A stretch of DNA of 17,968 nucleotides, taken from Vicinamibacterales bacterium (GTDB taxonomy: Bacteria > Acidobacteriota > Vicinamibacteria > Vicinamibacterales > CAVVIG01). The stretch lies in the NCBI GenBank assembly GCA_035315685.1, contig DATFXR010000157.1, positions 1 through 17,968 on the forward strand. Direction: 5' to 3'. Position numbers and translations under genes: made by a program. Shown piece after piece: positions 2,785-17,968 of this stretch (position 1 is its first letter; every line of letters starts with the position of its first letter). The notes below the pieces were generated by a model. It was given only the letters and a program-made list of their open reading frames with translations. It did not search any database and was not told the DNA's origin.

Positions 2785-3225
2785 ATGAGGCAGATGGTGC
2801 AGCTCGCGGTTGTGGTGCTGCCGATCCTCGGCACGGCGTCGTTCGCGGCACCGGCCGCGACGGACGCCGAGATTCGCGCGATCGAGAAGCAGTGGAACGA
2901 GGCGCGCGTGAAAGCCGATATCGCGACGCTCGATCGCCTGCTCGATCGCGACTGGACCGTGACCCACGGCGACGGCACGATCGACACCAAGGCGGAGTAC
3001 CTCGGCGATTTGCGGTCCGGCGCGCGGAAGTTCTTCGCGGACGTCACCGAGGATCACGTCGACGTGCGCGTCTACGGAGACACCGCCGTCGCGTCCGGCA
3101 CGAGCGATTCGAAAGTGGAATACAAGGGCAGGCCGTCCGGTGGTCCGCTCCGCTTCACGCGCGTTTACATCAAGCGCGACGGCCGCTGGCTGATGATCGT
3201 CACGCACGCCACGCGCAGGAATTAA
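2785..3225 (+). CDS. DUF4440 / SnoaL-like (NTF2-fold) domain protein, predicted secreted
   Basis: ATG 2785 is preceded by GAGGAG (2774-2779). The listed ORF 2533..3225 is an upstream extension with no RBS and Arg-rich junk. The translation MRQMVQLAVVVLPILGTASFAAPAATDAEIRAIEKQWNEARVKADIATLDRLL...VYIKRDGRWLMIVTHAT fits the DUF4440/NTF2-like pattern (IxAIEKQW...D..ALD.L..DDW....DG....K.EYL). The stop TAA 3223-3225 is contributed by the first heptamer of the downstream repeat element. Confidence 0.7.
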   Translation: MRQMVQLAVVVLPILGTASFAAPAATDAEIRAIEKQWNEARVKADIATLDRLLDRDWTVTHGDGTIDTKAEYLGDLRSGARKFFADVTEDHVDVRVYGDTAVASGTSDSKVEYKGRPSGGPLRFTRVYIKRDGRWLMIVTHATRRN

Positions 3226-3328
3226 GAATTGAGAATTAAGAATTGAGAATTCGTGCCACGCTGGCAAGAGGCGAAATGTTGCGGTCGTGATCACGAATTC
3301 TTAATTCCAAATTCATAATTCTTAATTG
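3220..3328. repeat. AT-rich palindromic element built of 7-bp units (AATTAAG/AATTGAG ... AATTCTT/AATTCCA), family 1 copy 1
   Basis: Left arm 3220-3255: AATTAAG AATTGAG AATTAAG AATTGAG AATTCGTG. Right arm 3292-3328: CACGAATTC TTAATTCC AAATTCA TAATTCT TAATTGC. The arms are about 85% reverse-complementary, with a perfect 9-bp GAATTCGTG/CACGAATTC base, around a 36-nt GC-rich spacer. Composition is under 25% GC in a ~68% GC background. It overlaps the last codon and stop of the upstream CDS. Confidence 0.85.
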
Positions 3329-4289: not shown

Positions 4290-4311
4290 CAGACCGCTGC
4301 CACATCATGTC

Positions 4312-4365
4312 GTAGTGTCCGGCTTCACCCGGACCTCAGCGAGGTCCGCGGAAGGCGGACACTAC
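4312..4365 (+). terminator. GC-rich stem-loop 23 nt after the VOC gene stop; outer 10-bp stem GTAGTGTCCG/CGGACACTAC enclosing inner hairpins GTCCGG-CTTCAC-CCGGAC and GGACC-TCAGCGA-GGTCC
   Basis: A perfect 10-bp inverted repeat at 4312-4321 / 4356-4365 with nested hairpins. There is no U-tract. The first 23 nt (GTAGTGTCCGGCTTCACCCGGAC) recur at 12871-12893. It could be a terminator or a conserved structured RNA upstream of msrA (start 4408). Confidence 0.35.
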
Positions 4366-4407
4366 GCGCGTGTGATTTCCTGTTTAATAAGAGGCGGGGT
4401 ACGCACG

Positions 4408-5082: not shown

Positions 5083-5197
5083 GCAATTAAGAATTAAAGA
5101 AGTAAGAATTAAGAATTCCTGATCAGGCTGTCGCACTGCCTGGCAGCGGAACAGCGTGACGCGCATTCTTAATTCTTAATTTGTAATTCTTAATTGC
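5083..5197. repeat. AT-rich palindromic 7-bp-unit element, family 1 copy 2 (GCAATTAAGAATT...AATTCTTAATTGC termini)
   Basis: Left arm 5083-5121: GC AATTAAG AATTAAA GAAGTAA GAATTAA GAATTCCTG. Right arm 5161-5197: GCGC ATTCTTA ATTCTTA ATTTGTA ATTCTTA ATTGC. The arms are reverse-complementary apart from a 1-nt indel and a few mismatches, around a 39-nt GC-rich spacer containing CTGCC-T-GGCAG. The terminal 13 nt match copy 1. It lies 25 nt after the msrA stop and ends 3 nt before the hrpB ATG. Confidence 0.85.
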
Positions 5198-5200
5198 CCG

Positions 5201-7570
5201 ATGCCGGTCCAAGCACTTCCAATCGACGGGTACATCGAACCAATCATCGCAGCAGTCCGCCGCTCGCGTGCGGTCGTAGTCACCGCCGCGCCGGGGGCTG
5301 GAAAAACCACGCGCGTTCCGCCGGCGCTGCTCGTTGACGGTCCGGTGATCCTCCTGCAGCCGCGGCGCGTCGCGGCGCGCGCGATCGCGGCGCGGGTTGC
5401 CGCTGAACGCGGCTGGACTCTCGGCCGCGAGGTCGGTTGGCAGGTGCGCTTCGAGCGCCGCTTCTCGGCCGAGACCGCGCTGCTCGTCGTCACCGAGGGG
5501 GTACTCACAGCGCGGCTGCAACACGATCCGCTGCTGTCGAAGTTCCGCACGGTCGTGCTCGACGAGTTTCACGAGCGAAGCGTGCACGCCGACGTGGCCC
5601 TTGCCCTCGCCCGTCAGGCCTGGCGCGCCCGTTCGACCGCTGCCGCTTCGTCCTCGGCGACGTCGACCGACGAGGACCTGCGCATCGTCGTCATGTCGGC
5701 GACGCTCGACGCGGATGCGGTGGCGTCGTTCCTCGGCGACTGCCCGATCGTCGCCGTGCCGGGCCGCACCTATCCTCTCGACGTCACCTACACGCCCGGT
5801 GTGCCGATCGGTGAAGCCGCCTCGAGTGCGCTGGCGGCGACGGGCGGGCAGGTGCTCTGCTTTCTCCCGGGCGCCGGGGAGATTCGCCGCGCGGCCGCCG
5901 ACATCGAGCCGCGCGTCGGAGCGGACGTCGAAGTAGTGCCGCTCCATGGATCGCTGGACGCCGACGCACAGGGCCTGGCGCTCCGTCCGTCATCTCGCCG
6001 CCGGATCGTCGTCGCCACGAACATCGCGGAAACGTCGCTGACGGTTCCGGGCGTCACCGCCGTCGTCGATACTGGTCTGCAGAAGATTGCGCGGTACGAC
6101 GCCGACCGCGGCATCGACAGTCTCGAGACCGAGCGTGTCACTGCAGATGCTGCCGATCAGCGCGCCGGCCGTGCCGGCCGCCTCGCACCCGGCATCGTGC
6201 GGCGGCTCTGGGATCGGCGCGATCGATTGCGGCCGCATCGCGAGCCGGACATCCGGCGAATCGATCTGGCCGGCACGGTGCTCGATGTGATTGCCTGGGG
6301 CGGCGATCCACGGACGCTCGACTGGTTCGAAGCGCCGCCGGCCGATGCGATCGCCGCTGCGCTGACGCTGCTCGGGCGGCTCGGTGTGATCGACGGACGC
6401 GGCCGGCTGACCGCGTTGGGCGAGCAGGTGCGGCGGATCCCGCTGCATCCACGACTCGCGTGCATGCTCGCCGCCGCCGGCGGCGGACCTCAGATGGCGC
6501 GGGCCTGTGCGCTTCTCTCCGAACGCCATCTGTTGCCGCCGCGCAGCGCATCTACCACATCCGATCTCCTGTCGGCGCTGGATCACTGGTCCGGGATGCC
6601 GCCGCATGTCCACCACGCGGCGGCGAGTATCCAGTCCGCGTTTCGGTCAGCCATCAGCCCTCAGCCCTCAGCCATTGACCGCGGCGAGGCGGTATTCCGC
6701 CGGGCCGTCCTGTCCGGATATCCCGACCGGGTCGCACAGCGACGCGCGCCGGGATCGCCGGAAGTGCTGCTCGCCTCCGGCACGGGCGCCACAATCGCCC
6801 GCGACAGCGGCGTCCATGACGGCGAGTTTCTCGTCGCGGTCGACGTCGCGCGACGGGCGGCGCCCGCCACGGCTCTGGTCCGCATCGCGAGCCGCGTCGA
6901 GCGCGAATGGCTCGCGCCGACCGCATCAGAGACCGTGCACCGTTTCGACGGATCGAGCGGCCGCGTGAGGGCGTTCGCCATCGAGCGCTATCTGGCGCTG
7001 GTTCTCGGCGAGCAGCCCGTCGCCGCCGACGTCGACGTTGCCGCACGGATGCTCGCTGACGCCTGGCTGGCGCGCGGACCTCGCGGCGCCGATGCGCAGT
7101 TGCTGCGCCGCCTGCGCTTCGCCGGACACGAGGCGGACGTTGCAGAATTGATCCGCACTGCCGCGTACGGTGCGCGATCGCTCGATGCGGTCACGCCTGG
7201 CGCTGCGCTCACGCCAGCCGTCCTGCGCGATCTCGACCGCGACGCGCCGGAGATGCTCGCGGTGCCCAGCGGCCGCAGCGCACGCCTCGAGTACAACGAG
7301 GATGGGACGGTGTCGGCGTCGGTGAAGCTCCAGGAACTGTTCGGTCTCGCCGACTCACCGCGAATCGGGCGCCGCCGCGAGCCTGTTGTCCTCGCACTGC
7401 TCGCGCCGAACGGCCGTCCCGTCCAGATCACGCGCGACCTGCGCAGCTTCTGGAACAACACGTATCCGGAAGTACGAAAGGAGCTGCGCGGCCGCTACCC
7501 GAAGCACCCGTGGCCCGAGGATCCGTGGAGCGCACAGCCGACGCATCGGACTGTGCGCCGGAAGCATTGA
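5201..7570 (+). CDS. hrpB: ATP-dependent RNA helicase HrpB (DEAH-box family)
   Basis: 789 aa. Walker A APGAGKTT, DEFHERS (DEAH-box variant), SATLD, FLPGAGEI, TNIAETSLTV.GV..VVD.G and QRAGRAGR are all present, followed by an HrpB-type C-terminal domain (...RYPKHPWPEDPW). The N-terminus is colinear with E. coli HrpB. Confidence 0.92.
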   Translation: MPVQALPIDGYIEPIIAAVRRSRAVVVTAAPGAGKTTRVPPALLVDGPVILLQPRRVAARAIAARVAAERGWTLGREVGWQVRFERRFSAETALLVVTEGVLTARLQHDPLLSKFRTVVLDEFHERSVHADVALALARQAWRARSTAAASSSATSTDEDLRIVVMSATLDADAVASFLGDCPIVAVPGRTYPLDVTYTPGVPIGEAASSALAATGGQVLCFLPGAGEIRRAAADIEPRVGADVEVVPLHGSLDADAQGLALRPSSRRRIVVATNIAETSLTVPGVTAVVDTGLQKIARYDADRGIDSLETERVTADAADQRAGRAGRLAPGIVRRLWDRRDRLRPHREPDIRRIDLAGTVLDVIAWGGDPRTLDWFEAPPADAIAAALTLLGRLGVIDGRGRLTALGEQVRRIPLHPRLACMLAAAGGGPQMARACALLSERHLLPPRSASTTSDLLSALDHWSGMPPHVHHAAASIQSAFRSAISPQPSAIDRGEAVFRRAVLSGYPDRVAQRRAPGSPEVLLASGTGATIARDSGVHDGEFLVAVDVARRAAPATALVRIASRVEREWLAPTASETVHRFDGSSGRVRAFAIERYLALVLGEQPVAADVDVAARMLADAWLARGPRGADAQLLRRLRFAGHEADVAELIRTAAYGARSLDAVTPGAALTPAVLRDLDRDAPEMLAVPSGRSARLEYNEDGTVSASVKLQELFGLADSPRIGRRREPVVLALLAPNGRPVQITRDLRSFWNNTYPEVRKELRGRYPKHPWPEDPWSAQPTHRTVRRKH
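6648..6675 (+). repeat. intragenic run of four tandem heptamers CAGCCAT CAGCCCT CAGCCCT CAGCCAT inside hrpB (encodes SAISPQPSAI)
   Basis: Direct 7-bp tandem repeats read in the sequence. The unit is the reverse complement of the ATGGCTG unit used by the intergenic elements at 11904-11940 and 16280-16380. It lies in the variable linker between the helicase core and the HrpB C-terminal domain, and the frame is preserved. Confidence 0.7.
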
Positions 7571-11762: not shown

Positions 11763-11815
11763 AACCGATGGGACTGATGGGCCCATAGGGTGGCTGGGGC
11801 TCGCCGAACCTTTCG

Positions 11816-11902
11816 ATGGTTCGAGACTTCACGCACATTCTGCGGCTGTTACGGCGCGCGCCAGGGTTCAGCGCCGTGGCCGTCATCGTTCTCGCGCTCG
11901 GT
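11816..11902 (+). pseudogene. remnant encoding only the N-terminal 29 aa of an ADOP-type (Acidobacterial duplicated orphan permease; FtsX/MacB-like) ABC permease
   Basis: The translation MVRDFTHILRLLRRAPGFSAVAVIVLALG matches the highly stereotyped ADOP N-terminus (..DLRYALRxLRKxPGFTAVAVLTLALGIGANTA..). Homology stops exactly where the heptamer repeat GATGGCT GATGGCT... begins at 11903. The frame then continues as repeat-derived junk to 12079. Confidence 0.55.
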
Positions 11903-11903
11903 C

Positions 11904-11940
11904 GATGGCTGATGGCTGATGGCATATGGTTAATGGTCAT
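11904..11940. repeat. tandem heptamer array GATGGCT GATGGCT GATGGCA TATGGTT AATGGTC, separating the ADOP remnant from the CRTAC1 fragment
   Basis: It shares an identical 19-mer ATGGCTGATGGCTGATGGC with the left arm of the element at 16280-16380. It contains the TAA (11931-11933) that closes the upstream side of the CRTAC1 reading frame. A degenerate ATGG-rich stretch (GATGGGACTGATGGGCCCATAGGGTGGCTGGGGC, 11767-11800) lies upstream of the ADOP remnant. Confidence 0.75.
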
Positions 11941-12071
11941 TCGTCGCCAACCAGAACGGCGACACCAACGGTCTGTTCCGGAACGACGGTGGCCATTTCG
12001 TCGACGTCGCGGGCGAGTGGGGTGTCGAGGCGCCGAGGCACTCGGCCGAGTTCGGCGGCGTCGGCCCCGCG

Positions 12072-12794
12072 GTGGCTGACTTCGATGGTGACGGCCTCCT
12101 CGATCTGTTCGTCGCCAACTATGGGCCGAGCGCGATGTACCGGAACGACCACGGCCGCCGGTTCGTCGACGTGACCCGTGACGTCGGCCTCTTCTTCGAG
12201 CAGCACGCGACCACGCCGTCATGGGGCGACTACGACAACGACGGCCGGCCGGACCTCTACGTGGCCGGCTTTCTGGTCAACGTCACGCACTATCCCGATC
12301 ATCTGTTCCACAACCTGCGCGCGGCGGGAGGTGGCGCCCGGTTCGAGGACGTGCTGCCGAAGCTCGTCGATCAGCACGACGGCAGTCACGGTGTGCAGTG
12401 GGTGGATTTCGACGGGGATGGCGCGCTCGACCTGGCGCTGACCAACAACGATCCGGCCGGCGGCCACTATCTGTTCAGGAATCTGCTTCCGGCGGCGCGC
12501 GCACGCCAGTCCCTCGCTGTCGACGTCGTCGACGGCCACGGCCACCACACGAAGGCGGGTGCCGAAGTACGTGTCTACGCGGCCGGCACACGCCGGCAGA
12601 TCTCGTCCGGTCTCGTTGACACCGGCGGCGGCTACTGCTCGCAGAACGTGATGCCGGTCCACGTCGCGACGGCCGATGCCGCGCGCGTGGACGTCGAGGT
12701 GACGTCGATGAGCGGGAGGGGACGTCGGACAACGCGCGTCGCCGGCGTCACCGTCGGCCAGGCGTCGCGCCCGCTCGTCGTGAAGGTGCCGTGA
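12072..12794 (+). CDS. CRTAC1-family (FG-GAP/VCBS repeats + ASPIC/UnbV domain) protein, C-terminal fragment; probably a 5'-truncated remnant
   Basis: From GTG 12072 it encodes DFDGDGLLDLFVANYG...RFVDVT, DYDNDGRPDLYVAG, VDFDGDGALDLALTNN (FG-GAP/VCBS units), then the UnbV/ASPIC-like C-terminus (VRVYAAG....SGLVDTGGGYCSQN). The same frame is open back to 11934 and still encodes a repeat unit (FVANQNGDTNGLFRNDGGHFVDVAGEWGV) with no start codon. There is no signal peptide. Full-length family members are typically much longer than this 240-aa fragment. Confidence 0.6.
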   Translation: MADFDGDGLLDLFVANYGPSAMYRNDHGRRFVDVTRDVGLFFEQHATTPSWGDYDNDGRPDLYVAGFLVNVTHYPDHLFHNLRAAGGGARFEDVLPKLVDQHDGSHGVQWVDFDGDGALDLALTNNDPAGGHYLFRNLLPAARARQSLAVDVVDGHGHHTKAGAEVRVYAAGTRRQISSGLVDTGGGYCSQNVMPVHVATADAARVDVEVTSMSGRGRRTTRVAGVTVGQASRPLVVKVP

Positions 12795-12859
12795 CTGGGG
12801 ACCGGGGACTGGGGCTGGGGCTGGGGCTGGGGTTGGGAGCTGGAGGCTGGGACTAGCTG
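12795..12859. repeat. G-rich tandem array CTGGGGA CCGGGGA (CTGGGG)x4 TTGGGAG CTGGAGG CTGGGAC; left arm of an imperfect inverted pair whose right arm is 12957-12986
   Basis: It starts at the base after the CRTAC1 stop. GGAGCTGGAGGCTGGGAC (12834-12851) is approximately complementary to GGCCCCCAGCTTCCAGCGC (12957-12975). Confidence 0.6.
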
Positions 12860-12870
12860 TCGTTACACCG

Positions 12871-12893
12871 GTAGTGTCCGGCTTGAGCCGGAC
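12871..12893 (+). other. second copy of hairpin motif GTAGTGTCCGGCTT-GAG-CCGGAC (perfect 8-bp stem GTCCGGCT/AGCCGGAC)
   Basis: 21 of 23 nt identical to 4312-4334 (GTAGTGTCCGGCTTCACCCGGAC). It lies in the spacer between the CTGGGG/CCCCAG arms. Confidence 0.5.
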
Positions 12894-12913
12894 GGTCGGC
12901 GAAGCTGCGGTTC

Positions 12914-12953
12914 GAAAATCCCGCGGTCTCTGCGTGTTTCCGCGGTTTGCGTT
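12914..12953. terminator. candidate bidirectional intrinsic terminator: GAAAATC - CCGCGG-N13-CCGCGG - TTTGCGTT between convergent genes
   Basis: A 6-bp GC stem (CCGCGG 12921-12926 / 12940-12945) is flanked by an A-run upstream and a T-run downstream. A U-rich tail therefore follows the hairpin on either transcript (UUUGCGUU on +, GAUUUUC on -). Confidence 0.4.
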
Positions 12954-12956
12954 CCC

Positions 12957-12986
12957 GGCCCCCAGCTTCCAGCGCCCAGCCCCGCG
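12957..12986. repeat. C-rich right arm GGCCCCCAGCTTCCAGCGCCCAGCCCCGCG, complementary to the CTGGGG array
   Basis: Reverse complement CGCGGGGCTGGGCGCTGGAAGCTGGGGGCC resembles GGGGCTGGGG...GGAGCTGGAGGCTGGG in the left arm. It ends 4 nt before the stop of the sigma-54 activator CDS (12991). Confidence 0.5.
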
Positions 12987-12990
12987 CCGA

Positions 12991-14319: not shown

Positions 14320-14398
14320 CGCCGGTATTAAAGCACGTCATGGCCGTCAATCAATTACTGATCTCTCACGAACCAGCGCCTAAACACGGCCGAAATGC

Positions 14399-14416
14399 CC
14401 GGCTCGGCAGATGCAC
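14399..14416 (+). promoter_or_regulatory. candidate sigma-54 (-24/-12) promoter cGGCtCG-N4-aTGCA for the flotillin-like gene
   Basis: GG at 14401-14402 and GC at 14413-14414 have the required 10-nt spacing. It matches TGGCACG-N4-TTGCW at about 9 of 12 positions. It lies ~55 nt upstream of ATG 14470 and next to a divergently encoded sigma-54 activator. It is not a perfect match. Confidence 0.3.
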
Positions 14417-14433
14417 CGATACACCGTATCGGT
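14413..14433. promoter_or_regulatory. perfect dyad CACCGATAC-ACC-GTATCGGTG overlapping the candidate -12 element
   Basis: 9-bp inverted repeat arms with a 3-bp spacer, read directly. It is 37 nt upstream of the flotillin-like start. It could be an operator, or a UAS for the adjacent activator. Confidence 0.4.
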
Positions 14434-14469
14434 GGACGCAAGCCAGTCCGCCTGGAAAGGACAGACGTC

Positions 14470-16278
14470 ATGCTCTCGCTGGTCTGGGAACACCTCTGGT
14501 TCTTCGTCGTGGCGGCCCCGCTCATCGTCATCGGGCTCGCCGTCGTCGCGTCCAGCGTCCGCATCGTCGGTGCGAACGAGTCGGGCCTGGTCGTCAAGCG
14601 GTTCGGGCCGGCGCTCGCCTCGGGCCGCATCGTCGCGCTCAACGGCGAAGCGGGGTATCAGGCGCGCATGCTGGCGCCGGGATGGCATTTCTTCCTGTGG
14701 CGTGTGCGCTATCGCGTGTACAAGGTGCCGACCGTTGTCGTGCGCCCTGGTGAGATCGCGCTCGTCGTGGCGGCTGACGGGGCCGCGATGCCGAGCGAGC
14801 GGGTGCTCGGCAAGGCGGTCGTCTGCAACAACTTCCAGGATGCGGAGGCGTTCCTCACCAACGGCGGCGAGCGCGGCCGGCAAATCATGGTACTGACCGC
14901 TGGTACCTACCGCATCAACCCGGCGCTGTTCGACGTGATCACGACGGCGTCGGCCACGAAAACCGGCCTGACGCCGGCCGACCTGCGCGTCTACCAGGTG
15001 CAGACGGACCGCGTCGGCATCGTGACGATGCTCGACGGCCGGCCGATTCCGGCGGGTGATCTTGCCGGCCCCGTGGTACCGGGGCACGAGAGCTTCCAGC
15101 GCGGCCAGGCGTTCATCGATGCCGGCGGCTGCCGTGGTCTGCAGGAGGAAGTCCTGCTGTCCGGCTCGTGGAACCTGAACCCGTGGCTGGCGCAGGTGGA
15201 GCAGGTGCCGCTCGTCGAAGTGCCGATCGGCTACGTCGGCGTCGTCGTCAGCTACGTCGGCCGCGAGCATCTCGACGTCTCGGGCGAATCGTTCACGCAC
15301 GGCGACCTCGTGGAGCGCGGGCGCAAAGGCGTGTGGGTCGACCCGCTGCTGCCCGGCAAGCATCCGCTGAACACGAAAGTGATGAAGGTGGAGCTCGTCC
15401 CGACGACGAACATCGTGCTGAACTGGGCGCAGCGGACCGAGGCGCACCACTACGACGAACGGCTGTCGTCGATCATCGTGCGTTCGAAGGACGGCTTCTC
15501 GTTCAGCCTCGACGTCTCGCAGATCATCCACATCGGCATGCGCAACGCGCCGCGGGTGATCTCACGCGTCGGCTCGATGCAGAACCTCGTCGATCACGTG
15601 CTGCAGCCGACCGTCGGCAACTACTTCCGCAACTCGGCGCAGCAGGTGACGGTGCTCGAGTTCCTCTCGGCGCGCTCGGAGCGGCAGCGCAACGCGTTCG
15701 AGAACATCCGGACGGCGATCGAGGCGTACGACGTCGAGTGCATCGACACGCTGGTCGGCGACATCGCGCCGCCCGCGGACCTGATGAAGACGCAGACCGA
15801 CCGCAAAATCGCGGAGGAGCTCGAGCGCACCTACGAGGTCCAGCGCGAGGCGCAGATCAAGCGTCAGGCGCTCGAGCGTGAGACCGCGGTCGCGAACCTG
15901 CAGGGTGAAGTGGTGCGATCGGAGCAGATGGTGAAAGTCGCGCAGCAGGACGCGCTGGCAGCGGCCGAACGCGCCCGCGGCGAAGGCAGCGCGCTGGAGC
16001 TCCGCGCCCAGGGTCAGGCGGCGTCGGTCCGGCTGGCGGGTGATGCGGAAGCGGCGGCGCTGCGCGCGGTCGGCGCGGCGAAGGCGGAAGCGTACAAGCT
16101 CGGAGTCGCGGCGGTCGGCGAAAGCGGCTATACGGCGATGCAGATCGCGACAATCCTTGGCGAGCACCACGTGAAGGTCGTACCGGAGATCGCGGTGACT
16201 GGTGATGGCGCGGGTGCAGGAATGGCGAATGTGATGCTCGCGAAACTCGTCGCTGCTGCGGGTGAGAAAAAGAACTGA
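14470..16278 (+). CDS. flotillin-like SPFH/band-7 domain protein (YqiK-type)
   Basis: ATG 14470 follows AAAGGA. The N-terminal membrane anchor is LWFFVVAAPLIVIGLAVVASSV. The ~600-aa product ends in an Ala/Glu-rich coiled-coil region (EAQIKRQALERETAVANLQ...AERARGEGSALELRAQGQAA...), which is the flotillin signature. I prefer the 14470 start over the longer 14395 start because of the RBS and the TM position. Confidence 0.8.
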   Translation: MLSLVWEHLWFFVVAAPLIVIGLAVVASSVRIVGANESGLVVKRFGPALASGRIVALNGEAGYQARMLAPGWHFFLWRVRYRVYKVPTVVVRPGEIALVVAADGAAMPSERVLGKAVVCNNFQDAEAFLTNGGERGRQIMVLTAGTYRINPALFDVITTASATKTGLTPADLRVYQVQTDRVGIVTMLDGRPIPAGDLAGPVVPGHESFQRGQAFIDAGGCRGLQEEVLLSGSWNLNPWLAQVEQVPLVEVPIGYVGVVVSYVGREHLDVSGESFTHGDLVERGRKGVWVDPLLPGKHPLNTKVMKVELVPTTNIVLNWAQRTEAHHYDERLSSIIVRSKDGFSFSLDVSQIIHIGMRNAPRVISRVGSMQNLVDHVLQPTVGNYFRNSAQQVTVLEFLSARSERQRNAFENIRTAIEAYDVECIDTLVGDIAPPADLMKTQTDRKIAEELERTYEVQREAQIKRQALERETAVANLQGEVVRSEQMVKVAQQDALAAAERARGEGSALELRAQGQAASVRLAGDAEAAALRAVGAAKAEAYKLGVAAVGESGYTAMQIATILGEHHVKVVPEIAVTGDGAGAGMANVMLAKLVAAAGEKKN

Positions 16279-16279
16279 G

Positions 16280-16380
16280 ACATGGCTGATGGCTGATGGC
16301 TCATGGCAATGGCTGATGGTTGAAGCGTTCAGCCATCGACCCTAGCCATTAGCCATTAGCCATTAGCCATTAGCCATGTC
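16280..16380. repeat. palindromic element of 7-bp units: (ATGGCTG)-type left arm / (AGCCATT)x4 right arm, family 2
   Basis: Left arm 16280-16320: ACATGGCT GATGGCT GATGGCT CATGGCA ATGGCT GATGG. Right arm 16328-16380: TTCAGCCATCGACCCT AGCCATT AGCCATT AGCCATT AGCCATT AGCCATG TC. It fills exactly the gap between convergent stops (16278 and 16385). The mismatches between arms are systematically G (left) opposite T (right), which pair as G-U in the + strand RNA but as C/A in the - strand RNA. Confidence 0.85.
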
Positions 16381-16384
16381 GGTG

Positions 16385-17968
16385 TCACTGCGCGGTCGTG
16401 CTTTTTGTGCCCCGCGCTCGCCGCTGCTTCTCCACCATCGCCTGCACATCCGCCGCGAGCTTCTTCGCGTCGTAGGCGATGCCGTCCTTGATCGTCCACT
16501 TGATGCCGCCGACGCGCTCCACCTTGCCAGTCTTGTCGTTGAGGCGGATCGTGCCGTTGGCGTAGAGCACCTTGAAGTTCTGCAGAGGATTCTGATCGAC
16601 GATCACCATGTCGGCCAGCATCCCTTCGCGGACCAGGCCGAACTGCGGGATCTCCCTGGGCTTCTCGTCGGCAGCCCAGTACATCTGGTGCTTCAGCGGT
16701 TCGGTCAGCGTCGCCGCGCCATTGATGGTCGCCGACTGAATCACCTCGAGCGGGTGGAAGCCCGCTTCCTGCAGCAGCTCGAACTCGTTGATGTAGCCGA
16801 AGCCGTAGGTCTGGTAGATGAACCCGGAATCGGAACCGGTCGTGACCCGGCCGCCCATCTTCTTGTAGTCGTTCATCAGCTTGAACCACACCTGATAGAA
16901 GTTGCGGAACGCGACCTCGTCCTCGGTGGTCCAGTCGTACCAGTACGCGCCGTGGTTCTGGCGATCGGGCGTGTAGAAATCCATCAGCGACGGCAGTGTG
17001 AACTTGTCGTGCCACTCGGCGGCGCGGAAGCGCATCACGTCGCGTCCGGCGGAGTAGATCGTCAGCGTCGGATCGAACGTCGTGCCGAGCTTCAGATGTT
17101 CCTCGAGATACGCCTTCCACTCCGGGCTGCCCGGCGGATAGATCTTGTCCCACAGCCGCGCCACCTGGCCGAAACGATCCTGCTCGTTGTTGTAGTTCTG
17201 CGTCACCGGATACGGCTGGACGACGTAGTCCTTGAGTAGCGATTCGAAGTGGCCGTAGAAGTGCGTGACCGTGCCGAGCCCCATCCGTGCCGCTTTGATC
17301 GCGTTCACCTGCACCACGCCGGTCTGCTGCAGGTGGGCGACCGTGCCCATGCCGAGCCCCTTTGCGTCCTGACAGTAGACCTCCATCAGTTCCGGCCACT
17401 CGGCGCCGAGCTTGATCCCGTCGATGCCGTTCTCGTGCGCCCACTTGACCCATGCGTGCGCCTGCTCGACCGTCTGCGGAATGCCTTTGCCCCAGCCGCT
17501 GCCCGGACGCTGATAGTTCCAGATTCGCGGCGCGACGATCTCGTTGCGCGTGCTCCGTTCTTTCTCTTTCACCGCGAGCGCGTTGTCGGTGAGTGGCACA
17601 CCGCGCACCGTCGTCACGCCGTGGGCCAGCCACAGCTTGTATGGATACTCGGCGTCAGGATTCTTCGGCGCGCCACCTGCGTGCACGTGGAGATCGACGA
17701 AGCCGGGCATCACGTACATCCCGGTCGCGTCGATCTCGTGGTCGGCTTTCGGCTGGCGATCGGGACGCAGCGGCAGCCCGGGCGTGCCCGCATTGCGGAT
17801 CGCCGTAATGCGATTCTGATTGACGACGATGTCGACCGGGCCGCGCGGCGGACCGCCGGTGCCGTCGATCAGCATCGCGCCGCGAATCACCATGGTCGCG
17901 TACGGCCCGAACCCTTCGCCCTGCGCGCGCGGCGGCGCCGGCGTCAGCGTCTCGCGCGGCAGCGGCTG
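16385..17968 (-). CDS. amidohydrolase-family (metal-dependent hydrolase) protein; the frame is still open at the 3' window edge, so the N-terminus may lie outside
   Basis: GFVDLHVHAGG (HxH metal site) follows the typical N-terminal MVIRGAMLIDGTGGPPRGPVDIVV..ITAI...AT(A)G..DATG.YV.PG. ATG 17893 is a possible start, but the same frame has no stop up to the window end (..QPLPRETLTPAPPRAQGEGFGPYAT-MVIRGA..). The stop is at 16385. Confidence 0.8.
   Translation of the reverse strand, partial: QPLPRETLTPAPPRAQGEGFGPYATMVIRGAMLIDGTGGPPRGPVDIVVNQNRITAIRNAGTPGLPLRPDRQPKADHEIDATGMYVMPGFVDLHVHAGGAPKNPDAEYPYKLWLAHGVTTVRGVPLTDNALAVKEKERSTRNEIVAPRIWNYQRPGSGWGKGIPQTVEQAHAWVKWAHENGIDGIKLGAEWPELMEVYCQDAKGLGMGTVAHLQQTGVVQVNAIKAARMGLGTVTHFYGHFESLLKDYVVQPYPVTQNYNNEQDRFGQVARLWDKIYPPGSPEWKAYLEEHLKLGTTFDPTLTIYSAGRDVMRFRAAEWHDKFTLPSLMDFYTPDRQNHGAYWYDWTTEDEVAFRNFYQVWFKLMNDYKKMGGRVTTGSDSGFIYQTYGFGYINEFELLQEAGFHPLEVIQSATINGAATLTEPLKHQMYWAADEKPREIPQFGLVREGMLADMVIVDQNPLQNFKVLYANGTIRLNDKTGKVERVGGIKWTIKDGIAYDAKKLAADVQAMVEKQRRARGTKSTTAQ

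Follow-up and report, generated by a model that had tools for sequence, protein, structure and literature searches.

The window analyzed here, a stretch of 17,968 nucleotides with a G+C content of 67%, comes from a Vicinamibacterales (Acidobacteriota) MAG. It contains two convergent genes separated by a gap of 106 bp. The plus-strand gene (positions 14395 to 16278) encodes a flotillin-like protein of the YqiK type with a Band 7/SPFH domain. The best database match of its open reading frame (ORF) is an SPFH-domain protein with 100% identity; since this protein has 602 amino acids and the ORF has 627, we infer that the gene starts near position 14470. The minus-strand gene (16385 to 17968) belongs to the amidohydrolase family; its ORF is open at the contig end, and its orthologues are 556 to 557 amino acids long. 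A hairpin located at positions 16279 to 16380 covers 102 bp of the gap. Its left foot directly abuts the TGA stop codon of the flotillin-like gene (16276 to 16278), and the stop codon of the amidohydrolase gene (16385 to 16387) begins 4 nt past its right foot. The first-pass annotation, made from the sequence of the window, had described this hairpin as filling the space between the two stop codons, and it does.

The hairpin is composed of the feet GAC and GTC, two heptad arms, and an apical stem-loop. The left arm (16282 to 16323, plus strand) reads ATGGCTG, ATGGCTG, ATGGCTC, the hexamer ATGGCA, ATGGCTG, and ATGGTTG. Tandem Repeats Finder describes it as 6.1 copies of the unit ATGGCTG with a period of 7, 83% matches, and 5% indels, and each of the three plus-strand frames of the array contains TGA stops and ATG codons. 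The right arm (16343 to 16377) consists of five perfect TAGCCAT units (period 7, 5.0 copies, 100% matches by the same program). When read on the minus strand, it is (ATGGCTA)n and has TAA stops in all frames. An inverted-repeat scan detected 90% complementarity between positions 16279 to 16307 and 16352 to 16380. In the plus-strand RNA, the predicted structure contains 45 pairs formed by 16279 to 16324 with 16328 to 16380 around a 3-nt loop, in agreement with the near-continuous stem first proposed for this strand. The apical stem-loop (16315 to 16337) is formed by pairing of 16315 to 16324 with 16328 to 16337, leaves GCG (16325 to 16327) in the loop, and is directly followed by a 6-nt bulge, GACCCT (16338 to 16343).

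RNA folding of the region from 16276 to 16388 yielded −74.5 kcal/mol for the plus strand (z = −10.7; none of 200 shuffled sequences was as good) and −61.8 kcal/mol for the minus strand (z = −7.9; no shuffle equaled this value). The plus strand is thus 12.7 kcal/mol more stable, and the unequal stability of the two strands expected in the first pass was confirmed by this calculation. When DNA parameters were used, the values were −41.5 for the plus and −37.1 for the minus strand. The plus-strand stem contains exactly three G-U pairs (16288:16371, 16295:16364, and 16320:16332), and the minus-strand structure contains none. With these three positions changed to Watson-Crick pairs, the energy was −81.3 on either strand, and therefore the entire 12.7 kcal/mol difference is due to the three positions. 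Irregularities that are equal on both strands are a C/T mismatch (16302/16357), a 1-nt bulge caused by the hexamer ATGGCA, and the GACCCT bulge. The view that almost every mismatch between the arms places G opposite T is thus correct for the transition mismatches, all three of which are G-U on the plus strand, but these account for only about half of all stem irregularities.

A consensus scan of positions 15800 to 16900 revealed neither a terminator nor a promoter; no stem followed by a U tract was detected in this interval, and a canonical intrinsic terminator was rejected as a candidate. The plus-strand tail after the stem, GGUGUCACUGCG, has no U tract. On the minus strand, the sole U-rich stretch, UUCUUUUUCU, begins 6 nt beyond the stem and is complementary to the Lys/Glu codons that close the flotillin ORF. 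No matches to the hairpin were found in Rfam 15 at gathering thresholds. A permissive Rfam search returned plant microRNA-precursor models only (33.8 bits against 168), and assignment to a known RNA family was rejected.

Several other heptad structures are present in the window. Two hairpins, one of the GAATTAA/TTAATTC type at 3217 to 3327 between the co-directional DUF4440 and glyoxalase genes and a second GAATTAA-type one at 5085 to 5195 in the msrA-hrpB gap, have the same two-arm heptad architecture as the hairpin at 16279 to 16380 and belong to a different unit family, as had been proposed for these AATT elements. A G-rich array is located at 12795 to 12851. An (AGCCMTC)4 array at 6646 to 6676 (plus strand), made of four AGCCATC/AGCCCTC units, lies within the hrpB ORF in the open-frame orientation; it is in frame with hrpB, codes for RSAISPQPSAIDR, and falls in a poorly conserved linker. 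The ATGGCT family itself is represented in the window by one full and one half copy per 18 kb. The half copy, a one-armed plus-strand array at 11900 to 11939 (GATGGCT, GATGGCT, GATGGCA, TATGGTT, AATGG), is located at the truncation point of an FG-GAP gene, exactly where homology to FG-GAP orthologues begins (at their residue ~214).

Using homologues of the flotillin protein, we obtained six orthologous loci, designated L121, L122, L125, L126, L128, and L129. The gap contains an ATGGCTG-type hairpin in L121 (95% flotillin protein identity) and L129 (81%), a GGGGACT-type hairpin in L122 (88%), and GGGGCTN-type hairpins in L126 (91%) and L128 (86%). In L125 (81%), where the downstream gene differs, there is a plain G+C hairpin. 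A strong hairpin is therefore present after the flotillin stop codon in every orthologue examined, with a sequence family that varies, which suggests that the hairpin structure itself is retained at this 3′ gap. Replacement of one family by another is also seen in the msrA-hrpB gap, where the GAATTAA hairpin of the window has a CACGGAG-type counterpart in L125; a perfect AGAAGTN hairpin is present in L128 between hrpB and the kinase gene. The right arm of L121 consists of diverged CAGCCAT-type units and a single terminal TAGCCAT. Because the L121 units are diverged CAGCCAT, the five TAGCCAT units of the window most likely represent a recent amplification of one variant. The region of the window hairpin that contains the bulge, CCATCGACCCTAGCCAT, recurs almost verbatim in a further locus, L156.

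Copies of the ATGGCTR repeat and their position relative to genes

Scanning one genome per species for ATGGCTNATGGCTNATGGCT yielded at least 120 loci. The matches listed are spread over many phyla, and several of them share one MAG; ATGGCTA-type arrays and hairpins were detected in many cyanobacteria too. Two-armed ATGGCTR hairpins are found in genomes of Vicinamibacterales, Acidobacteria gp6, other Acidobacteriota, and Gemmatimonadales/-aceae. A viral collection gave a single match to the family. In metagenome contigs, the two-arm pattern ATGGCTNATGGCT-N(25-55)-AGCCATNAGCCAT also matched at least 120 loci; all of those listed have a G+C content of 60 to 71%, and together they contain at least 122 distinct hairpins of the form (ATGGCTR)n...(YAGCCAT)n with a median length of 89 nt. 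The flanks of the 122 hairpins among the matches listed fall into 94 distinct groups, and most hairpins therefore occupy different genomic sites.

The copies have more in common than the heptad unit. The three positions of the 5′ foot, immediately before the first ATGGCT, are occupied by G, T, and C in 48, 50, and 54% of cases, respectively, and those of the 3′ foot, after the last AGCCAT, by G, A, and C in 64, 51, and 52% (the background for A or T is ~17% each). The family feet are thus GTC|ATGGCT...AGCCAT|GAC, and the copy at 16279 to 16380 has the GAC...GTC version. Inner variants also recur: 18 left arms contain ATGGCAT, 17 right arms contain ATGCCAT, and a subfamily of ~13 copies has an apical hairpin of the GGGGTTAACCCC type. 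One-armed arrays occur as well as two-armed copies. The shared feet and recurrent inner variants make independent local origins implausible. We conclude that the hairpin at 16279 to 16380 is one copy of a repeat family that, judging from the sequence its members share, has been dispersed. A literature search for the repeat sequence returned only an unrelated PCR primer, and, as far as this search could find, the abundant ATGGCTR family appears not to have been described.

Since the variable number of units makes any alignment arbitrary, pattern-based and pairwise alignment was used rather than a covariance model. The arms were aligned pairwise with a strand-neutral score, in which G.T and A.C have the same cost, and transition mismatches were counted. 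The arms contain from zero to nine perfect ATGGCT cores, some copies have nine units facing three, and the numbers of left and right units are uncorrelated (Spearman 0.01). In the 122 copies among the matches listed, the seventh base of the heptad faces its partner as G-C in 97 cases, G.T in 51, A.C in 45, and A-T in 24, and the two sides are independent of each other (odds ratio of 1.01). With no covariation and uncorrelated arm lengths, the fine pairing in the family is under no detectable selection.

Signs of mobility were sought around the copies. Direct-repeat matches that would indicate target-site duplications were as frequent as expected at offsets 0 to 6 with k = 2 to 6, and no pairs of empty and filled sites were found. 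When 861 ORFs from 174 loci were clustered, no transposase or other mobilizing gene recurred beside the copies; the clusters contained only common paralogous families (MacB/FtsX permeases, sigma-54 activators, and kinases) and syntenic neighbors. phmmer and tblastn searches with approximate IS200 and RAYT queries, which make this a weak test, detected nothing credible near the copies, and the sole marginal match was rejected as a transposase, being by eye an NrdR-like gene.

Positions relative to genes were determined on the metagenome contigs with a crude in-house ORF/GC3 caller, counting neighbors within 150 nt. Of the gaps with a hairpin, 26 separate convergent, 31 co-directional, and 3 divergent genes. 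The corresponding shares among the other gaps of these contigs are 11, 70, and 20%, from which 6.4, 41.8, and 11.8 gaps would be expected (chi-square P = 1e-15); the hairpin gaps are four-fold enriched when convergent and four-fold depleted when divergent. The copies lie almost exclusively downstream of genes, adjoining stop codons, and in convergent cases, the feet are mostly no more than ~25 nt from both stop codons. Only 5% of the family hairpin sides have at least six T residues in the next 12 nt. This placement at 3′ ends and the scarcity of T tails characterize the family as an extragenic 3′-end element without the canonical terminator tail. The earlier proposal of a terminator or stabilizing 3′ stem-loop behind the flotillin gene is therefore plausible in its second part, given the enrichment in convergent gaps, but without a U tract, the hairpin is not a canonical terminator.

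Each orientation of the repeat has its own coding properties: (ATGGCTG)n contains TGA and (ATGGCTA)n contains TAA in three of three frames, and (CAGCCAT)n has no stop in any frame. An ORF that reads into the element on one strand or the other would be closed within ~21 nt. Because of these all-frame stops, a copy inserted at the end of a gene would cost a few codons at most and be nearly free. Such near-free insertion at 3′ ends would explain the flush fit of the hairpin to both stop codons.

Relation to known extragenic repeats and a probable role at transcript ends

Cyanobacterial STRRs are intergenic 7-bp tandem repeats whose inverted arrays form long hairpins, for example at hupS-hupL; their function is unproven, with transcript stabilization or translational coupling proposed (PMC2670836). 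They resemble the ATGGCTR hairpins in the 7-bp period, the intergenic location, and the inverted, hairpin-forming arrays. However, the host here is a member of Vicinamibacterales with 67% G+C and not a cyanobacterium. ATGGCTR, the unit found here, is also not known to be one of the three classical STRR units, CCCCAGT, TTGGTCA, and CAACAGT. Defined feet and a strong link to 3′ ends are features of the ATGGCTR family that may also set it apart.

Bacterial genomes contain more heptameric simple repeats than expected, an excess for which polymerase slippage has been put forward as an explanation; among intergenic heptamers such as Xanthomonas GGGAATC and Nostoc GGGGA(C/T)T, some plus/minus pairs can form stem-loops, and the inverted GGGAATC pairs of Xanthomonas occupy the same intergenic positions in related species, with varying length and sequence (PMC4692102). 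At the flotillin gap, too, the hairpin turns over and the site stays the same. The Xanthomonas and Nostoc heptamers are, however, G-rich, were studied as formers of G-quadruplexes, and are mostly single-armed, whereas ATGGCTR cannot form a G-quadruplex.

Another class with clear parallels is REP/REPIN, extragenic, imperfectly palindromic repeats associated with RAYT transposases (PMC3337134, PMC3116915). Like REPINs, the ATGGCTR elements are ~100 nt long, apparently present in high copy number, built of two inverted halves around a spacer, and free of target-site duplications. They differ from REPINs in having variable heptad arms and GTC/GAC feet instead of a fixed 20- to 40-nt REP with a GTAG-type 5′ tetranucleotide, and a cognate RAYT, which REPINs have, was not found near ATGGCTR copies in the weak test with approximate queries. 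In E. coli and Pseudomonas, REPs are located mainly at the 3′ ends of genes and stabilize upstream mRNA. Enterobacterial REP elements have an established role in protection against 3′ exonucleases and in hindering read-through.

Intrinsic terminators, including the bidirectional ones between convergent genes, also place a stable stem-loop straight after stop codons, but they combine a stem of ~5 to 15 pairs with a U tract, in contrast to the 45 pairs found here and a plus strand that has no such tract. MITEs, such as the Correia elements of Neisseria, are likewise short, noncoding, dispersed, and hairpin-forming; they are often cotranscribed with their neighbors, as the heptad hairpins probably are too. 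They have unique terminal inverted repeats, whereas the arms of ATGGCTR elements are internal tandem heptads. We rejected assignment of the element to MITEs, with no target-site duplication at the tested offsets and no related autonomous insertion sequence found. The element is thus an addition, in Acidobacteriota, to the heptanucleotide-repeat extragenic palindromes already recognized.

The explanation that we favor, with a probability of about 0.6, combines these features: the hairpin is a dispersed extragenic palindrome, comparable to REPs and STRRs, that serves as a 3′-end hairpin for both convergent transcripts. Judging from its position and structure, both mRNAs would carry the element at their 3′ ends. 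A stem of at least 40 pairs would act as a REP-like 3′ structure, blocking 3′→5′ exonucleases and so protecting the upstream mRNA, and would also hinder read-through into the opposing gene, in a manner other than that of a U-tract intrinsic terminator. The number and the variants of the units change independently in the two arms, probably through slipped-strand mispairing during replication.

A purely selfish or neutral repeat of the REPIN or MITE kind, for which gene ends are just harmless sites and which has no function at transcript ends, is a minor but real possibility. It would account for the feet and inner variants shared by at least 94 distinct sites, for the lack of covariation and arm lengths that do not correlate, for cheap insertion at 3′ ends afforded by all-frame stops, and for the half element at the FG-GAP truncation point. 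Absence of covariation makes a useful hairpin and a tolerated selfish repeat inseparable in these data. What argues against a purely selfish nature is that a strong hairpin is kept in every flotillin-gap orthologue examined, including L125, whose G+C hairpin is not a repeat; in addition, the hallmarks of mobility (a transposase, a target-site duplication, or an empty/filled pair) were not found in the searches described above.

Heptad families replace one another at 3′ gaps, and similar units are present in distant phyla. ATGGCTR, GAATTAA, GGGGACT, GGGGCTN, AGAAGTN, and other heptad hairpins might be products or substrates of a dedicated, so far unrecognized system, a reading that we consider doubtful. 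Candidates would be a REPIN-like partnership with a transposase that targets hairpins or terminators, or a fold-back/template-switch process that builds inverted arrays. A system of this kind would continually re-seed transcript ends and would cause deletions at half elements.

Strand asymmetry of the hairpin and the less probable explanations

The first-pass annotation had interpreted the G-U pairs as the result of selection at the RNA level: the plus-strand RNA would have shaped the hairpin, with G-U tolerated only in the flotillin transcript, for which the structure would serve as a terminator or 3′ stabilizer. The 12.7 kcal/mol advantage of the plus strand and the fact that all three transition mismatches are G-U on that strand agree with this proposal. 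However, the number of G-U pairs is only three, two of them trace to a single unit variant, TAGCCAT (with T), which was amplified to five perfect copies, and the stem is not followed by a U tract on the plus strand.

Across 122 copies among the matches listed, there were 243 G-U pairs on the plus and 227 on the minus strand, which is expected if contig orientation is arbitrary. For the 63 copies with one defined transcript direction, the sense strand carries 136 G-U pairs and the antisense strand 113 (P = 0.16). A weak trend was observed when hairpins rather than pairs were counted, with 32 favoring sense, 18 favoring antisense, and 13 tied (P = 0.065), but the mean sense-minus-antisense energy for the same copies was −0.4 kcal/mol (P = 0.62). 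When only the 31 strictly co-directional copies were considered, the G-U tally was 65 sense versus 55 antisense, and the antisense structure was on average slightly (1.2 kcal/mol) more stable. Co-directional members of a set of 75 heptad hairpins from mixed phyla gave 55 versus 59. The antisense strand also folds better at four of five orthologous co-directional sites. The near equality of G.T and A.C facing bases across the family and their independence point in the same direction.

At the flotillin site itself, the flotillin-sense strand is the better fold in five of six loci. The G-U tallies are 3:0 in the window, 3:3 in L121, 0:0 in L122, 1:1 in L126, 5:3 in L128, and 5:0 in L129. Their sum, 17:7, is driven by two loci, and since the orthologues are related, they do not count as independent observations. 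Overall, the expectation that further copies would show an orientation bias relative to transcription was not borne out, and the claim of RNA-level selection for the flotillin transcript essentially fails with it; we regard such selection as improbable.

The asymmetry looks instead like an incidental by-product of slippage. Under the combined explanation favored above, the left arm would happen to carry the G variant and the right arm would have recently amplified the T variant. A left G variant facing a right T variant makes up ~24% of paired units, being one of four roughly expected arm combinations. More generally, an apparent G-U strand signal in stems built of repeats can be one mutation amplified by slippage, and the G-U pairs should therefore not be counted as several independent events.

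A role at the DNA level is distinctly improbable. In such a scenario, RNA folding would be irrelevant, and the ATGGCT core recurring every 7 bp would form a multisite platform for a protein or a cruciform; candidate binders would be a nucleoid-associated protein, a gyrase/IHF-like protein as at BIMEs, or a recombinase. A conserved core with a seventh base that varies freely and without covariation, unit numbers that vary independently in each arm, and the occurrence of one-armed arrays would all be in line with protein binding. However, the search pattern itself required the core, whose conservation is hence not independent evidence, consecutive sites spaced by 7 bp face different sides of the helix, and no candidate binding protein was identified in the analysis. 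The link with 3′ ends and convergent gaps is, moreover, a prediction of a role in RNA or transcription. Very improbable is a local origin, in which a pre-existing terminator hairpin grew by microsatellite slippage independently of other copies: the five perfect TAGCCAT units do indicate recent local slippage, and heptamer simple repeats are over-represented in bacteria with polymerase slippage as the proposed cause (PMC4692102), but the unit, the feet, and the inner variants are common to at least 94 unrelated sites and several genomes.

Over-representation of heptanucleotide repeats has been known for decades (STRRs; PMC4692102), and their origin and function are unexplained. The results presented here add a high-G+C soil lineage, Vicinamibacterales, that carries several heptad families as long hairpins flush with gene ends; the sequences of these hairpins change rapidly while their sites stay the same, and some of them coincide with gene truncations. 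Should the elements prove mobile, they would represent a REPIN-like system whose arm architecture is new. If they set the 3′ ends of mRNAs, they would provide an account of transcription-unit limits in a phylum whose terminators are essentially uncharacterized.

Hairpins of the flotillin 3′ gap and neighboring gaps

The gap downstream of the flotillin gene holds hairpins built from different repeats in relatives whose proteins share 81 to 91% identity. In place of the ATGGCTR-type heptad hairpin of the window, four orthologous flotillin loci carry a GGGGACT hairpin (L122, 8149–8262), GGGGCTN hairpins (L126, 6961–7049; L128, 11807–11913), or a plain G+C stem (L125, 11807–11860). The hairpin family at the gap is subject to fast turnover at a fixed position. 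A U-rich stretch, UUCUUUUUCU, is present on the − strand at 16262–16278 and begins 6 nt past the hairpin (16279–16380); it is the complement of Lys and Glu codons at the end of the flotillin open reading frame (ORF). A terminator-like tail, if there is one on any strand, would be found on the amidohydrolase strand and not on the flotillin strand.

Further heptad unit families occupy other gaps of the flotillin-region synteny. A CACGGAG-type hairpin is located in the msrA-hrpB gap of L125 (3300–3395), and a perfect AGAAGTN hairpin of 25 pairs is located between hrpB and a kinase gene in L128 (1026–1084).

Heptad arrays within and beside genes

A one-armed ATGGCT heptad array (11900–11940), i.e., a half element, is associated with the 5′-truncated FG-GAP gene of the window (11763–12794). 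When aligned to its orthologues of 494 to 500 amino acids, this gene matches them only from their residue ~214 on. The homology begins at 11940, which is exactly the inner end of the array, and a TAA at 11931–11933, within the array, closes the FG-GAP frame. Position 11940 looks like a deletion junction at the half element.

Directly 3′ of the FG-GAP stop, a G-rich array, (ACTGGGG/CTGGGG)n (12795–12851), faces, ~100 nt away, a C-rich CCCCAGN arm (about 12955–12985) that comes before the sigma-54 activator gene's stop codon. ACTGGGG is complementary to CCCCAGT, the STRR1 unit of cyanobacteria. Comparison of the window (12795–12990) with the orthologous loci L122 (2366–4837), L128 (4436–6904), and L129 (2776–8393) revealed that MacB/FtsX-type permease genes near the FG-GAP and sigma-54 activator genes vary in presence and placement, and heptad arrays are located at the junctions.

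Within the hrpB ORF, an in-frame array, (AGCCATC/AGCCCTC)x4 (6646–6676), encodes RSAISPQPSAIDR. It lies in a linker for which the L125 orthologue shows no conservation, and the orientation of the array, (CAGCCAT)n, is stop-free in all frames.

Distribution of heptad arrays and a second palindrome family

Tandem ATGGCTN arrays were found in at least 120 loci from very distant phyla; among the matches listed, the hosts include many filamentous cyanobacteria, Bacteroidota, Planctomycetota, Chloroflexota, and Patescibacteria. Across the 0.94 Mb that these loci make up, our own detector picked up 70 hairpins with heptad arms, representing many unit types.

A second small palindrome family, GTCCGGCTNNAGCCGGAC, is found alongside heptad hairpins in high-G+C contigs; of 251 loci, 12 contain it, with 14 matches in total. 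Copies are located in the window (4311–4366 and 12866–12890) and in L128 (8446–8463 and 8524–8541). In the window, the palindrome is preceded by GTAG (GTAGTGTCCGGCTT), and it resembles REP both in size and in this GTAG foot.

Stop and start codons at or beside the feet of co-directional copies

Elements of the ATGGCTR family also occupy five orthologous co-directional sites (L041, 7817–7929; L157, 586–680; L204, 9396–9507; L135, 615–697; and L175, 10660–10742). Their apical parts are strongly divergent. At all five sites, the upstream gene ends in a TGA stop that shares bases with the left foot (CCTGACATGGCT). The longest downstream ORF uses the right-foot ATG (AGCCATGAC) as its start in L157, L204, and L135; in L175, this ORF begins 5 nt beyond the stem. 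A single stem thus has a stop codon at or beside one foot and a start codon at or beside the other, an arrangement that would be favorable for translational coupling.
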